DNA of 64,000 bases from Candidatus Thorarchaeota archaeon (GCA_048882045.1 JBHLRZ010000015.1:1-64000); one strand, 5' to 3'. Counted from the stretch's first letter, positions 52,259 through 56,831 are shown. Made by a program: numbers and translations. The notes: generated from the letters alone by a model not told the origin.

Positions 52259-52308
52259 TTTGCACGTGGGGGTTGAGTTAAATTGGTACAATATATGTGC
52301 GGAGTAGA

Positions 52309-52980
52309 ATGACTCGTGGTCTTGAGGATCTTCACATCCACACAAACTACTCAGATGGAGAATCTAGTGTTGATAAGATAGTCCGTCGAGCAACATCACT
52401 TGGTCTCAAAACAGTAGCCATCACAGACCACTTCTGGCCATCCCTAGGGTCTCAGAAAGGTGGAAAGAACATCATTGACCAACGTCGGAGAGAGATTGAA
52501 TCAGCCAGACTAGATTTTCCAGACATCACGATTCTTGATGGAGCAGAGGTCGACATTCAGTCAAATGGAGAGCTCGCACCTGTTGCCGGAGGAATTGATC
52601 AGTTCGACCTGATTATTGGTTCATTTCATCACTTTACAGACTCGACTCGCTGGGCGTCAGCACTCTCAAAGGCGGTCAGGAAGAAGGAGTTCCAGATCCT
52701 CGGACACTGGGACGGATATCTCTCCTCATATAGAGAGGAGGATGGTGAGATTGCTGCAAGAGCATTATCTGATGCAGGGATTGTAGTCGAACTCAATGGG
52801 AGATATCTTATTGAGAATACTGAATTTTTTGAAACTGCGAAGGAAGCTGGTTGCAGTTTCTCATTAGGAAGTGACTCACATCATGTGAGTACCGTCGGAA
52901 AGATAGACCTTCAGTACAGACTCGCTACAAGTATGGACCTTGGAATCATTGACTCGAATGAACTGGTCCTTAGGAAGTAA
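52309..52980 (+). CDS. PHP domain phosphoesterase
   Basis: DLHIHTNYSDG, AITDH, GAEVD, GH, ELN, LGSDSH. Confidence 0.92.
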   Translation: MTRGLEDLHIHTNYSDGESSVDKIVRRATSLGLKTVAITDHFWPSLGSQKGGKNIIDQRRREIESARLDFPDITILDGAEVDIQSNGELAPVAGGIDQFDLIIGSFHHFTDSTRWASALSKAVRKKEFQILGHWDGYLSSYREEDGEIAARALSDAGIVVELNGRYLIENTEFFETAKEAGCSFSLGSDSHHVSTVGKIDLQYRLATSMDLGIIDSNELVLRK

Positions 52981-53096
52981 TAGATGTTACATTGGGACTT
53001 CTTCCATATCAAAGATGTGACAAAGATACCAAACTGCAGAGTCGGAATGCTTTTCTCTCAGAAATCTTATCCTCAAGTCATTGGAGATGACAAGTC

Positions 53097-53513
53097 ATGG
53101 GTGACAAATTCACTTTCCCCTCTGATGAGTGGATTGAACTTTACATGGAACTACTGAACAAGAATGATCGATACGAGGATGCAGCCAAAACATGGGAAGG
53201 CGACTTTGTCTTCGAGATCACAGCAGACAACCAGGTGATAGAAGAACCGATCAGGTTCTACATGGACCTCTGGCACGGAAAGTGCAGAGAAGCAAGAATG
53301 GCTGGACCTGATGACACCGCAGAATTCACCTATTCTGGGCCCTACAAGAACTGGAAACTGCTGTTTGAGGGGAAGATAGATCCGATCAAAGGCATCATGG
53401 CAAGAAAGTTCAAGCTAGACGGAGACATGGGGAAGGTCATGCGATACACAAAAGCAGCGCTAGAGCTCGTTGCTACAACCAGAGAGGTCCCTACGAAATA
53501 TCTTGACGAATGA
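53097..53513 (+). CDS. SCP2 sterol/lipid-binding domain protein
   Basis: FPS.EW, DLWHGKC, W..L..GKIDPIK.IM..K.KL.GD. Confidence 0.88.
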   Translation: MGDKFTFPSDEWIELYMELLNKNDRYEDAAKTWEGDFVFEITADNQVIEEPIRFYMDLWHGKCREARMAGPDDTAEFTYSGPYKNWKLLFEGKIDPIKGIMARKFKLDGDMGKVMRYTKAALELVATTREVPTKYLDE

Positions 53514-53552: not shown

Positions 53553-54605
53553 ATGTGGTGGAAAAGGAGCGGTTCAAAGAAGTATCCAGGACCTAGTTGT
53601 GCAGTCTGGGAAATAACTCTTGCATGCAATCTGAATTGTATACACTGCGGTTCCGCTGCAGGGAAGAAACGGGATGACGAACTGTCAATTGAAGAGGCTC
53701 TGAAACTCTGTGAAGACCTTCGTGGTATAGGTTGTCAGGGTGTCGCTCTGATGGGTGGTGAGCCTTTGCTCAGACCTGACTGGATTGAAATCTCTCAACG
53801 AGTCCATGAGTTAGACATGGATCTATCAATAATTACTAACGGATGGCTCGGACAAGATGAAAAGACAACTCAGAAGATTGTGGAACTCGCTCCAGAATGT
53901 GTCACAATTAGTCTGGATGGCGGAGAGGCTTCTGTCCATGACATGATCAGAGGGGTCGAGGGATCTTTTGATCGCGCAACGAAGGCCATTGATAGATACT
54001 CAGGTCTTGGACTACCAACTTCTGTGATAACCACAGTGCACAAATTGAATCTTAAACAACTAGTGAAGGTCCGGGACCTTCTGAGAGGGAAAGGTGTTGC
54101 TTGGCAGATACAAATGGCAACTCCATATGGGAGATTGGAGCGTAGACAGGTCCTTTCTCAGGAGGAGTACTACTCGGTTGCATTATTCATCGCTGCTACT
54201 AGGAAACGATTTTCCAAGGAAATCATGGTAGCAGGAGCCCATGACATGGGTTATTTCTCACCCATTCTTCCTGAGCTTCAAGTGAAGGAGTGGCAAGGAT
54301 GTCAGGCGGGCATCTCCACACTAGGGATACAGAGTAATGGGAATGTGCTTGGTTGTCTAGCACTCCCTGATGAGTTCATTGAAGGGAACATAAGAAACCG
54401 CACTCTCAGTGATATCTGGTATGACGAGAACACCTGCAAGTATTCTCGCCATTTCAAGAGTAGCGAAATCAAGGCTCATTGTGGAAGATGTGAGTATAAG
54501 ATGCAGTGTGGAGGGGGGTGTTCAGCTGTATCTGTCAGTATGTCAGGGGATCTTCATCAGGACCCATACTGCTGTCGGCACATAGAGCAGTCTATGAAAG
54601 CGTGA
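53553..54605 (+). CDS. Radical SAM/SPASM peptide maturase, splicease-like (PlpX / GDL-associated type)
   Basis: VWEITLACNLNCIHCGS.AG..R.DEL, WQIQM..P.GR, MGYF, WQGCQAG...LGIQSNG.V.GC..L, CxxC-x5-CxxxC, DPYC. Confidence 0.85.
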   Translation: MWWKRSGSKKYPGPSCAVWEITLACNLNCIHCGSAAGKKRDDELSIEEALKLCEDLRGIGCQGVALMGGEPLLRPDWIEISQRVHELDMDLSIITNGWLGQDEKTTQKIVELAPECVTISLDGGEASVHDMIRGVEGSFDRATKAIDRYSGLGLPTSVITTVHKLNLKQLVKVRDLLRGKGVAWQIQMATPYGRLERRQVLSQEEYYSVALFIAATRKRFSKEIMVAGAHDMGYFSPILPELQVKEWQGCQAGISTLGIQSNGNVLGCLALPDEFIEGNIRNRTLSDIWYDENTCKYSRHFKSSEIKAHCGRCEYKMQCGGGCSAVSVSMSGDLHQDPYCCRHIEQSMKA

Positions 54606-54705
54606 TTCAAAGTCTTTATCGGAGATTGGGTGTATTAGTAGATGGGTATTGTCAATGAAGTCGCTTGGTCTAGGAGAATTCGAGTTCATGTTCTGGAGAA
54701 TCAGG

Positions 54706-55107
54706 ATGCACCTTCCCTCGCGGCTACGAAAGATTTTAGAAAACGGACTATATTCACAGTTTCTCTCACCGTCACAATTGCAGATGATAGAAACCCTTGG
54801 TGAGAACATTGGTCTAGATAAGGAGGAGATCCATGCAGCGGTTCCCGGTCATTTAGGACCATTCCACGCTGGTGATAGAAGGAGGATGACACTCTTTTCT
54901 TATCTAATAGCGATTCTTCTGATTGTTGCTGTTAGTTTGGTAATTCTGGTGTTTACAGGGAATTATCCTCTAAGTGATCCTAGTACAACCTACACACCTG
55001 GAACACGTTACGGGTCCATAAGTCCGAGAGACTTTAATACAATACCTCATGAACCACAGTGCTTTTTGGGGAACATGACAGAGTCTTCTGAGGAGATGAT
55101 TCATTGA
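54706..55107 (+). CDS. Single-TM protein with C-terminal XYG motif, putative substrate 1
   Basis: Paralog of next gene; TYTPGTRYGSISPRDF; start chosen by paralog alignment. Confidence 0.75.
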   Translation: MHLPSRLRKILENGLYSQFLSPSQLQMIETLGENIGLDKEEIHAAVPGHLGPFHAGDRRRMTLFSYLIAILLIVAVSLVILVFTGNYPLSDPSTTYTPGTRYGSISPRDFNTIPHEPQCFLGNMTESSEEMIH

Positions 55108-55148
55108 TTCGACCTACTCTGCAGTCATTCAGACCAAGGTTAGTGAGA

Positions 55149-55508
55149 ATGAAACAATTTCTTCCAGGAAGTCTATTTACGTTGCTTGATATACTCACCA
55201 AAGAAGATGGCCCAACCAAATCCCAGCTCGAGAGAATCAAACTCCTGGGGGAAGATATTGGTCTTGGGGAAGACGATGTTTTGACTGCTCTTGAACCATC
55301 CTCTGGCCCAATAGGATTTGATAGCCAACGGAGACCAACACTGTATCTGTCCTATATCTTGATACTAATTGTTGTTACAATTGGAGTGCTTGTAGTATGG
55401 ACAATAGTTGATCCAGAATCATCACCAATCAAGACCTATCTTCCTGGGACATTGTATGGAACCATTCGACCCGATGATTTTGCCCAATCAAAGCTTGTGA
55501 GGTTCTAG
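55149..55508 (+). CDS. Single-TM protein with C-terminal XYG motif, putative substrate 2
   Basis: SQL..I..LGE.IGL shared with previous gene; TYLPGTLYGTIRPDDF. Confidence 0.75.
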   Translation: MKQFLPGSLFTLLDILTKEDGPTKSQLERIKLLGEDIGLGEDDVLTALEPSSGPIGFDSQRRPTLYLSYILILIVVTIGVLVVWTIVDPESSPIKTYLPGTLYGTIRPDDFAQSKLVRF

Positions 55509-55517
55509 GAGAGGCTG

Positions 55518-56831
55518 GTGCCCACTCTGAAATTGAATCTGGGATGCGGGCTGGTGTACAAGAAAGGCTACATAAATGTGGACGCCTTCGACCATACTAT
55601 TGCAGATCAAGTGATGTCGATTCTCGATCTTGACTTCAATGACAACTACTTCTCTCAGATTGAGTGTATGCAAGTTCTCGAGCATCTAGGTGCTGCTAAG
55701 AGCATATACGCCTTAGCTGAGATTTATCGTGTATTGGAGCCAAATGGATTGTTTGTTCTTGAAACTCCGGATATTGAAACTGCATTCCACTATTTTCTCA
55801 AGAACAATGAGTCCAAACGGAAGATTCTGATGAACTGGATCTTTGGCCTTGATATTCCAGGAATGTCACATAAGTATGGTTTTCCTAAGGTATTACTGGA
55901 ACAAGTTTTGAGAGAGGTTGGATTTGCAGATATTAAAATCGAGCAGATTAGAAAAGATACTCTGCAACCAACTCTTCGGGCGATATGTACGAAGACAGAC
56001 TCACAAATCCACCAGTTCTTCACGCACCTCAGAAAAGATCTCAACCAGAGAGGAATAGCGGATATGGAAAATCAAGTAGACATAATCGAACTGGAAGAAC
56101 TTCTTCAGAAGATTCTGAGATTATTACTGAGTGGAAAAACACCTGTTGACAGGGAGCAAATCAAACAAGTTCTGGGATTTGCATTTTTGAGTTGTCCAAA
56201 GGTTGGTCTAGTGTTATTAGAAATGATGAAAAAACACAACCTTGTCAACTCGACGGATATCTATTCGTTTACAAAAATACTTACTGAGTTTGCAACTTTT
56301 GACCTCACAATGGTAACGTTACATACTTTTCTAGAGATGCCTATCATACCAGGTTCACAATCAAATACGTTCGATTTGGTCAAAGCTATGATGATGAAGT
56401 CTATTGGTAAAGTCCTCTCAGGAGACATGGAGGTTCTTGAACAGCTTAGAAACACAGCAGAGTCAATGTCGATTGACATTTCTCTAGATTTCTTCTCGAA
56501 GACAATGTTGGAGAATGTTTCAAACAAACAGCTTGCATTGGGTTCAAAGGCTTTTTCTCTCGGAGAATACGATGATGCAATTGTCCACTACAAAAATTCG
56601 GTCAAGTCAAATCGTGATACCTTGTTGGGATTCTGGAATCTAGCACGTTTGCACAGTTTGAGAAATGATGAGAAAGAAGCGCTCAAGTTTTACCAAGCTA
56701 TTGAAAGTCTGATATCTAATCAGCATCCAAAATTGCAAAGAGCACTACAAGAGAAGTTTAACAGAGAAATCAAGCTGTTGAAAGAGAATCGGTCTGAATC
56801 GGTTGCTGAACCTCTGATATCCTTGTATTAG
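55518..56831 (+). CDS. Class I SAM-dependent methyltransferase with C-terminal TPR
   Basis: KLNLGCG....GYINVD, QVLEHL, RVLEPNG...ETPD; C-terminal TPR (G.YDDAI.HY...FWNLARL). Confidence 0.85.
   Translation: MPTLKLNLGCGLVYKKGYINVDAFDHTIADQVMSILDLDFNDNYFSQIECMQVLEHLGAAKSIYALAEIYRVLEPNGLFVLETPDIETAFHYFLKNNESKRKILMNWIFGLDIPGMSHKYGFPKVLLEQVLREVGFADIKIEQIRKDTLQPTLRAICTKTDSQIHQFFTHLRKDLNQRGIADMENQVDIIELEELLQKILRLLLSGKTPVDREQIKQVLGFAFLSCPKVGLVLLEMMKKHNLVNSTDIYSFTKILTEFATFDLTMVTLHTFLEMPIIPGSQSNTFDLVKAMMMKSIGKVLSGDMEVLEQLRNTAESMSIDISLDFFSKTMLENVSNKQLALGSKAFSLGEYDDAIVHYKNSVKSNRDTLLGFWNLARLHSLRNDEKEALKFYQAIESLISNQHPKLQRALQEKFNREIKLLKENRSESVAEPLISLY

Follow-up and report, generated by a model that had tools for sequence, protein, structure and literature searches.

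A radical SAM enzyme related to the spliceases, its putative membrane-anchored substrates and a methyltransferase in a Thorarchaeota genome

What do a radical S-adenosylmethionine (SAM) enzyme, two small membrane proteins and a methyltransferase do together in an Asgard archaeon? Genes for these four proteins occupy positions 53553-56831 of a 64,000-nucleotide stretch of a Candidatus Thorarchaeota genome (GCA_048882045.1, JBHLRZ010000015.1:1-64000), which we refer to as the window. An earlier reading of the sequence (“the original prediction”) had proposed an archaeal splicease system, in which the radical SAM enzyme excises tyramine from an X-Tyr-Gly (XYG) site in both small proteins and leaves a ketoamide behind. 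Our analysis suggests an answer in two parts. It is likely that the radical SAM enzyme and the methyltransferase modify the tyrosine-containing tail of the adjacent small proteins before these are inserted or exported. The full reading, which includes a splicease-like excision of tyramine to a ketoamide, is drawn by analogy and is more tentative; we put its probability at about 0.45.

Two small proteins as putative substrates

The open reading frames (ORFs) of the region and their translations agree with the four co-oriented genes and the motif positions of the original prediction. All four ORFs lie on the plus strand and are tightly packed. The first (53553-54605) encodes a 350-amino-acid protein with Pfam Radical_SAM and SPASM domains. 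It is followed by the genes for small proteins A (54649-55107; 152 amino acids counted from a TTG at 54649, the ATG at 54655 being the likelier start) and B (55104-55508; 134 amino acids), the latter overlapping the stop of the former by 4 nt. The fourth gene (55518-56831) encodes a 437-amino-acid protein with Methyltransf_11 and TPR domains.

Each small protein contains an SQL..I..LGE.IGL segment, one hydrophobic helix and a tyrosine-containing tail. In protein A the putative leader helix (~54772-54843) and the transmembrane helix (~54889-54957) precede the core TYTPGTRYGSISPRDF (54988-55035), whose putative target residue, Tyr121 (codon at 55009-55011), follows an arginine (RYG). In protein B the corresponding elements lie at ~55221-55292, ~55338-55409 and 55434-55481; the core reads TYLPGTLYGTIRPDDF, and Tyr118 (55455-55457) follows a leucine (LYG). 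The prediction that the two are paralogs with a common motif after the membrane helix and a common N-terminal segment was borne out by BLASTP (37% identity across 122 amino acids, E = 3e-21) and by translation of the motifs. A Pfam search with the two proteins returned no match, and a search of the source genome identified only these two precursor genes, both adjoining the radical SAM gene.

The membrane helix is flanked by an arginine-rich N-terminal side and an acidic C-terminal side, a charge distribution that, taken alone, predicts an N-in/C-out topology. We also considered export by the twin-arginine translocation (Tat) pathway, as a pair of arginines precedes the helix. This was dropped because the pair is not conserved among orthologs, where it is replaced by KQR, KSR, RSR, GRK and others.

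If the small proteins are substrates of the radical SAM enzyme, they should accompany it elsewhere. A scan of species-representative genomes yielded 571 relatives of the enzyme; we retrieved 79 loci from it and used 84 loci in comparisons by ORF clustering. The retrieved loci come from Thor-, Hermod-, Loki- and Atabey-type Asgard archaea and Thermoplasmatota, and among bacteria from Elusimicrobiota, Geobacteraceae, Syntrophus, another deltaproteobacterium and Nitrospiraceae. The notion of a specifically archaeal system therefore fails, since the same family is found in Elusimicrobiota and Desulfobacterota-type bacteria as well as in Thermoplasmatota.

Nearly all loci with sufficient flanking sequence have one to five small genes beside the radical SAM gene, and the products have in common an N-terminal leader (l-Y-E-l-G-x-x-l-G-L-x-k-x-d-I) and a C-terminal core (Y-x-P/A-G-T-X-Y-x-T/S-I/V-S-x-x-D-F). 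Both elements could be aligned across 48 diverse precursors, and the core tyrosine (Y118 in protein B) is nearly invariant in all precursor forms. When a profile of the 48 precursors was searched against 1.84 billion proteins, 312 representative clusters were recovered at E ≤ 1e-3 (55 of them at ≤ 1e-10), all of 57-188 amino acids; among them are a precursor with five cores (P0123), a triple fusion of leader and core, and a further Kunitz fusion (see below). Genetically encoded precursors with leader and core, in multiple copies beside a maturase, are what is generally asked of a system for peptides made by the ribosome and modified post-translationally (RiPPs), and are what we observe here.

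What lies between leader and core differs among lineages. Asgard and some Thermoplasmata precursors have a transmembrane helix in this position, and those of Elusimicrobiota a lipobox-type signal (LAAC, VGC and similar) and a linker with a cysteine pair. Desulfobacterota-type precursors have a Sec-type signal and a Kunitz/BPTI domain (PF00014, E = 5e-14 to 6e-15) ahead of the core. Most Thermoplasmatota precursors have nothing between the two; these are soluble peptides of 57-85 residues that look like classical RiPP precursors. Thermoplasmatota loci contain up to three tandem cores per precursor, up to five precursor genes and three radical SAM paralogs.

In two other Asgard lineages a protein with the same leader but at least two membrane helices is encoded beside the radical SAM gene (L014:6420-6833 and L015:8330-8866). 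Its tail is divergent (KYGVFS..., ...EYGVYTKE) and does not have the D-F end. These proteins may represent a more distant type of substrate.

Enzyme and small proteins also co-occur. Among 41 related genomes, 12 have an ortholog of the radical SAM enzyme; the same 12 have the methyltransferase, and neither gene is present in the remaining 29. A Thor-type precursor profile detected precursors in 10 of the 12 and in none of the 29. In the other two genomes (G028 and G029) only divergent candidates, spotted by eye, lie beside the radical SAM gene. Of the 24 other genomes of the genus, 8 retain the order PHP, SCP2 (two genes upstream of the cassette, considered below), radical SAM, two to three small proteins and methyltransferase, and the order of the cassette recurs more loosely across phyla, which argues that the arrangement is not due to chance.

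To ask whether the two proteins could interact, we modeled the radical SAM enzyme, with SAM and three clusters, together with protein B, using alignments for both partners, in three runs and with three controls. The interface score ipSAE was 0.88 in the three runs, as compared to 0.40 for the best control; of 80 solved complexes, 58 reach the mark set for this score, as do 2 of 110 mismatched pairs. At least 81% of contacts were common to the runs, and the predicted local distance difference test (pLDDT) value of the partner was 68 or higher. In the model, the leader (protein B residues 34-66) lies on helix 204-219, loop 237-249 and the C-terminus of the enzyme. The core (residues 110-126, with Y112 and Y118) sits inside the barrel, adjoining the positions of the WQxQ motif and W247. 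The model thus supports docking of both leader and core on the enzyme. Its geometry is the same as that reported for the binary spliceases (RhaX/RhaA; PMC11414181), where the enzyme is activated by a leader helix and holds XYG in its active site (Richter et al. 2024, PMC11414181).

Synteny, phyletic co-occurrence and the complex model together make it very likely that the small proteins are substrates of the radical SAM enzyme, as had been proposed, and the N-terminal helical segment behaves as the leader it was taken to be.

The two enzymes and their relatives

Pfam assigned the Radical_SAM (E = 1.6e-25) and SPASM (E = 1.5e-7) domains of the 350-residue enzyme above cut-off. In an alignment of 14 diverse family members, the cysteines of the radical SAM cluster (C25, C29 and C32) are invariant, as are seven SPASM cysteines (C250, C268, C310, C313, C319, C323 and C340). 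The enzyme has no N-terminal RiPP recognition element (RRE) domain.

Its two best NCBIfam matches are both splicease families, TIGR04103 (200.2 bits; cut-off 725) and TIGR03913 (193.9 bits; cut-off 591.75). These are followed by AhbD (TIGR04545; 163.7 bits, cut-off 500), TIGR04053 (162 bits, cut-off 395), NirJ2 (150 bits, cut-off 500), MftC (140 bits, cut-off 265) and PqqE (101 bits, cut-off 381). No maturase of the XYE-type triceptide family is among the best 25 of the 72 NCBIfam matches. In a sequence search of PDB chains the closest solved structure was PqqE (E = 5e-21), which is not close enough for a structure-based assignment of function.

A TIGR04103 search of 14 control genomes yielded no true splicease that could serve as a reference, and reference sequences were taken from a tblastn search of an annotated plasmid collection with the enzyme as query. 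The top match was a radical SAM enzyme of Aureibacter (35.5% identity, E = 2e-58). The “nif11-class peptide radical SAM maturase 3” of Nostoc (33.7% identity, E = 2e-52) and several “GDL motif peptide-associated” maturases (~32% identity, E = 1e-47 to 1e-43) were also recovered, and matches other than spliceases came well behind (MftC, 6e-32; TIGR04053, 1e-27; PqqE, 4e-23).

We then built a tree (IQ-TREE, LG+C20+F+G4, 58 rows) from 38 diverse family members, the plasmid references and AhbD-like sequences from four bacterial genomes. The family is monophyletic, with a Shimodaira-Hasegawa-like approximate likelihood ratio test (SH-aLRT) value of 99, as are the splicease references (support 100). 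The two clades are joined on a branch of length 0.67 (SH-aLRT 83), and AhbD, TIGR04053, MftC and PqqE are all placed outside this grouping. A tree constrained to unite the family with the AhbD/TIGR04053 clade was 72.9 log-likelihood units worse and was rejected by the approximately unbiased (AU) test (p = 0.0014), the constraint group having been chosen after the tree had been seen. Clustering of the enzyme with AhbD or PqqE, which would have spoken against the original prediction, is therefore not what we found. For the same reasons (score under cut-off, position outside the clade and rejection of the constrained clade) we do not assign it to the AhbD/AhbC/NirJ-type enzymes of heme pathways.

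Alignment identified eight residues common to the family and the spliceases: L23, G33, R40, Q185, Q187, G233, W247 and G267. None is seen in more than 2 of the 14 outgroup sequences, and five, including W247 and the two glutamines of the WQxQ motif (Q185 and Q187), are absent from all 14. Several of these signature residues sit in the modeled substrate interface.

Judged by these comparisons, the enzyme appears to be the closest relative of the spliceases, yet not a member of TIGR04103 or TIGR03913, because its scores are far below both cut-offs, it belongs to a separate sister clade and it does not have the C-terminal extension of the spliceases. The original assignment to these families stands only as kinship: they are the two best profile matches, the best named BLAST relatives and the sister group in the tree.

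As to the fourth gene, Pfam assigned Methyltransf_11 at 30.7 bits (cut-off 21.2), and its TPR matches were below threshold. The methyltransferase domain spans residues ~1-160 (55518-55997). The C-terminal ~270 residues form an all-helical domain that closes with TPR repeats (residues 340-402; ~56535-56723), as confirmed by PDB sequence matches to consensus TPR proteins. The AlphaFold2 model of the protein has a pLDDT of 92, and a Foldseek search with it returned only generic class I methyltransferases with bound SAM or S-adenosylhomocysteine (E ~1e-5). The fold is a minimal class I fold in which G9-C10-G11, N20 and D22 are invariant across 27 members. With a Rossmann-like fold, a GxGxG SAM-binding loop and an acidic residue after strand 2, the N-terminal domain is, by sequence and model, a predicted class I SAM-dependent methyltransferase. 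Elusimicrobiota versions of the protein are shorter (~320 amino acids).

The methyltransferase is present in 59 of 84 loci, many of the absences falling at contig ends, and it is an obligate partner in most lineages. It is absent within 4 kb in a subset of Thermoplasmatota and in the Syntrophus, deltaproteobacterial and Nitrospiraceae loci. Across the 84 loci, the residue two positions after the tyrosine (+2) tracks this pattern: where it is T, S or V the methyltransferase is mostly nearby, and where it is G, A or P the methyltransferase is mostly absent. The latter group comprises the membrane-type subset of Thermoplasmatota, Syntrophus, the deltaproteobacterium and Nitrospiraceae. The pattern has exceptions and includes truncated contigs and related lineages; as a lead, it hints at what the methyltransferase recognizes.

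The proposed reaction at the core tyrosine and the possible role of the product

In the full reading, the leader helix of each small protein would dock on the radical SAM/SPASM enzyme in the cytoplasm and place the C-terminal core (G-T-X-Y-x-T-I/V-S-x-x-D-F) into the enzyme barrel, where the enzyme would act on the nearly invariant tyrosine and excise a tyramine equivalent (C8H9NO, -135 Da). We take the chemistry to be splicease-like because the enzyme is sister to the tyramine spliceases and has in common with them active-site residues that are otherwise unique. The methyltransferase-TPR protein would add a methyl group, or hold the precursor by its helical/TPR domain. The modified protein would be inserted post-translationally, much like a tail-anchored protein, with its N-terminus inside and ~30-55 residues of tail outside, where the tail may present a protease-inhibitor-type warhead at the cell surface. 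X would be the P1 specificity residue and carry the ketoamide. Of this scheme, the gene content, conservation, co-occurrence and phylogenetic position were observed and the docking of leader and core comes from the model; we infer the ketoamide chemistry, the methylation, the topology and the inhibitor function.

A role in protease inhibition is suggested by two features of the precursors. Hypervariable P1 positions are typical of inhibitor families. The residue before the tyrosine, X(-1), is the most variable position of the core (R/K in 45%, then L, D, Y, H, W and I) and differs both between tandem cores and between paralogs of one locus, as with arginine and leucine in the window. This is the pattern expected of the P1 residue of a protease inhibitor. 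The second feature is the Kunitz domain, found between the Sec-type signal and the tyrosine core in precursors of Geobacteraceae, Syntrophus and a deltaproteobacterium (L068:3493-3966, L091:3556-3984, L094:3445-3984, the marginal L082:3580-3984 and P0170). In all five, the P1 residue of the Kunitz domain (Lys) and X of the core (Lys/Arg) are both basic. Published spliceotides inhibit serine and cysteine proteases in a manner that depends on the ketoamide (PMC11626197).

Several observations weigh against tyramine excision. With both splicease profiles the enzyme falls far short of the cut-off (200 versus 725 and 194 versus 592 bits), its identity to the spliceases is only about 32-35%, the support of the branch that joins the two clades is moderate (83) and makes the family a sister clade rather than a member, and the C-terminal extension of 60-160 residues seen in spliceases is missing. 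About one third of the cores have no glycine after the tyrosine, unlike the X-Y-G of all characterized spliceases. T+2, S+4, D+7 and F+8 of the core are very strongly conserved, which fits a cross-link partner or a cofactor-like product equally well. A conserved methyltransferase partner is foreign to the described spliceotide pathways. As the tail is predicted to lie outside the membrane, modification must be assumed to precede insertion. The Kunitz fusions and the basic X residues stem from lineages related to one another and cannot be counted as independent, so that the agreement between the Kunitz P1 and X is suggestive only.

The glycine deserves a closer look, as the original prediction rested on an XYG site. 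The site is present in both proteins of the window (RYG and LYG), but it is not the rule of the family, since glycine follows the tyrosine in only 89 of 135 cores (~66%), a result that in part goes the way the prediction had regarded as unfavorable. The other cores have A, S, Y, F, H, N or T, partly by lineage: Elusimicrobiota have Y or F, Lokiarchaeia-type cores S, some Thorarchaeota A and Atabeyarchaeia N. On the other hand, natural DUF1843 precursors tied to TIGR03913 show Y-A and Y-M beside Y-G, and glycine may therefore not be absolute for the wider group of enzymes either.

The best-surviving alternative keeps the same components and substrates and changes the reaction. Here the enzyme pair would install a tyrosine-centered modification other than tyramine excision, on a core near-identical from Asgard archaea to Elusimicrobiota, in proteins that are exported or surface-anchored and in some bacteria Kunitz-fused. 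The modification could be an oxidative change, as in PqqE and MftC, or a C-C or C-O cross-link from the tyrosine ring or C-beta, for instance a Tyr-x-Thr cyclophane resembling that of triceptides, or a bond with S+4, D+7 or F+8; methylation would then complete a conserved cofactor-like or signaling tail. The family's separate clade, its ~33% identity to spliceases far under the cut-offs and the non-conserved glycine all favor this, and so do core positions flanking the site that are unusually invariant across domains of life, as in the cofactor precursors PqqA and MftA. The nearby SPASM families PqqE and MftC work on tyrosine by different reactions, and a tightly co-inherited methyltransferase is not part of known spliceotide pathways.

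However, the residues directly flanking the tyrosine, X(-1) and +1, are the variable ones, the nearest relatives of known chemistry are the spliceases, and the residues that only the family and the spliceases have in common line the modeled substrate site. The Kunitz fusions point to protease inhibition, which a ketoamide would explain directly, and triceptide (XYE-type) maturases do not figure among the best profile matches, as noted above. We regard a different tyrosine-directed reaction as a serious contender, but one with well under an even chance of being correct.

Another possibility, which overlaps with both readings of the chemistry, is that the modified product works inside the cell or membrane, as a redox-active or signaling tail, and is not an extracellular inhibitor. 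This would suit the many Thermoplasmatota precursors without a signal peptide or transmembrane helix; moreover, the Asgard topology comes only from charge distribution, and no protease target is linked in the loci. It is nonetheless improbable, as most other forms have an export or anchoring element ahead of the core (the Asgard transmembrane helix with its positive N-terminal side, the Elusimicrobiota lipobox and the Desulfobacterota-type Sec signal with Kunitz domain) and the Kunitz domain is an extracytoplasmic, disulfide-rich fold.

That the small proteins are scaffolds, regulators or unrelated neighbors, with the radical SAM enzyme and methyltransferase acting on a small molecule, lipid or cofactor in the manner of AhbD or NirJ, is very improbable: the AhbD, NirJ2 and TIGR04053 profiles score little below the splicease profiles (150-164 bits) and the loci lack a conserved leader peptidase or dedicated exporter, but the AhbD/TIGR04053 grouping is rejected by the AU test, genes for leader and core follow the radical SAM gene into very distant lineages in several architectures, as is typical of RiPP precursors rather than scaffolds, the complex model holds up against its controls, and enzyme and small proteins co-occur among the 41 genomes.

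As regards processing and export, clustering of the ORFs of the 84 loci revealed no conserved leader peptidase, transporter or dedicated exporter. General signal peptidases could process the bacterial precursors, because these carry lipobox or Sec-type signals.

Known systems, significance and neighboring genes

Published studies (PMC11414181, PMC11626197) describe spliceases from bacteria only: type I, represented by PlpX/PlpY/PlpA and PcpXYA of Pleurocapsa (TIGR04103), and the binary type II, represented by RhaX/RhaA, RasX and RcsX of Rheinheimera. As in these systems, a radical SAM/SPASM enzyme with the signatures CxxxCxHCG, WQxQ and W-x-GC is encoded here beside one or several precursors with an X-Tyr-Gly-like site, and precursors with multiple cores also occur. 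No Y protein is present, as in the binary spliceases, and the original observation that a separate PlpY/RRE gene is missing fits the published binary systems (PMC11414181). In contrast, the enzyme has 350 amino acids as compared to 412-516, the leader is of a new type that is neither Nif11 nor NHLP, and the 13-residue core is strongly conserved while glycine after the tyrosine is optional. The precursors are membrane-anchored, lipoprotein-like or Kunitz-fused, a methyltransferase-TPR partner is co-inherited, and the system occurs in archaea.

The GDL-motif maturases of TIGR03913, with DUF1843/DUF1842 precursors in Azospirillum and Burkholderia, offer a further comparison. There, several tandem precursor genes lie directly upstream of the radical SAM gene, and the site is x-Y-G/A/M followed by small or aliphatic residues. 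The tyrosine site is N-terminal to the helical GDL domain, whereas here it is C-terminal and follows the leader, and the enzymes are of ~475-515 amino acids.

On plasmid pAT1 of Aureibacter tunicatorum (L105:3159-5929), three DUF1843 genes in tandem, with LYA, MYA and PYG as N-terminal sites, precede a gene for a 474-amino-acid radical SAM enzyme of the splicease clade and, directly after it, one for a class I methyltransferase. The latter is DOT1/Methyltransf_4-like, of a different family from the methyltransferase in the window, and has no TPR. This is an instance of a bacterial splicease-type radical SAM enzyme paired with a methyltransferase and with residues other than glycine after the tyrosine.

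Like PqqE/PqqA and MftC/MftA, the system has the SPASM architecture and a tyrosine in a short C-terminal core that is strongly conserved across taxa. These systems differ in lying outside the grouping of the family with the spliceases and in their lower scores with the enzyme (MftC, 140 bits; PqqE, 101 bits). There is no PqqD/MftB-type RRE gene near the cassette in the window, and the precursors, unlike PqqA and MftA, are multi-copy and multi-core and carry export signals.

Our literature search on splicease/archaea, Kunitz/radical SAM/RiPP and Asgard/RiPP/radical SAM, which did not extend to the classification of Scott et al. 2022, found no description of this family. It is apparently undescribed: a sister family of the spliceases with a new leader/core class of precursor, new precursor architectures and a methyltransferase as an additional partner. 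Little is known so far of the natural products of spliceases or of their physiological roles. If tyramine is excised, spliceotides would be known from archaea for the first time, as would ketoamide inhibitors tethered to a membrane or fused to a Kunitz domain, and splicease-like backbone editing would reach Asgard and Thermoplasmatota archaea as well as several uncultured bacterial phyla. If the modification is of another tyrosine-centered kind, the modified peptides, exported or anchored at the surface, would form a new class. The membrane anchor and lipoprotein forms would tie the modification to surface display, and the Kunitz fusions together with the hypervariable residue ahead of the tyrosine would tie it to protease inhibition. 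The soluble Thermoplasmatota precursors of 57-85 residues are simple test substrates, and the short, highly conserved core of 13 residues might be used in protein engineering as a new splice tag. The extra step that the methyltransferase-TPR partner represents is so far unexplained and may uncover new tailoring chemistry.

The genes directly upstream of the cassette encode a protein with a PHP domain (52297-52980) and a sterol-carrier-like SCP2 protein (53097-53513). In every congeneric genome with the cassette, both keep their synteny with it (SCP2 identity 80-89%), but they are absent from the distant radical SAM loci compared outside the genus. We therefore dropped the pair (52297-53513) as parts of the system; its association with the cassette is probably only positional.

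Three observations concern other lineages. The Thermoplasmatota loci L047, L052, L060, L041 and L045 combine up to three radical SAM paralogs with multi-core precursors, which suggests that each paralog is specialized for a subset of cores. A 461-amino-acid adenylate-forming ligase resembling PaaK and F390 synthetase is encoded beside the radical SAM and precursor genes in L073 (556-1941) and 11 other Thermoplasmatota loci (for example L041, L063, L067, L078 and L081). Its PDB matches are phenylacetate-CoA ligases (E = 4e-27), and its NCBIfam PaaK-like matches are under cut-off. This ligase may act on the C-terminus of the peptide, as many such precursors end exactly in ...DF, or on an aromatic by-product. 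Finally, in L022 (7815-8774) and 10 other Elusimicrobiota loci the gene for the lipoprotein-type precursor is directly followed by one for a secreted protein of 319 amino acids, which has a signal peptide and matches nothing in Pfam or NCBIfam; this protein could be either a partner of the modified tail or its target.

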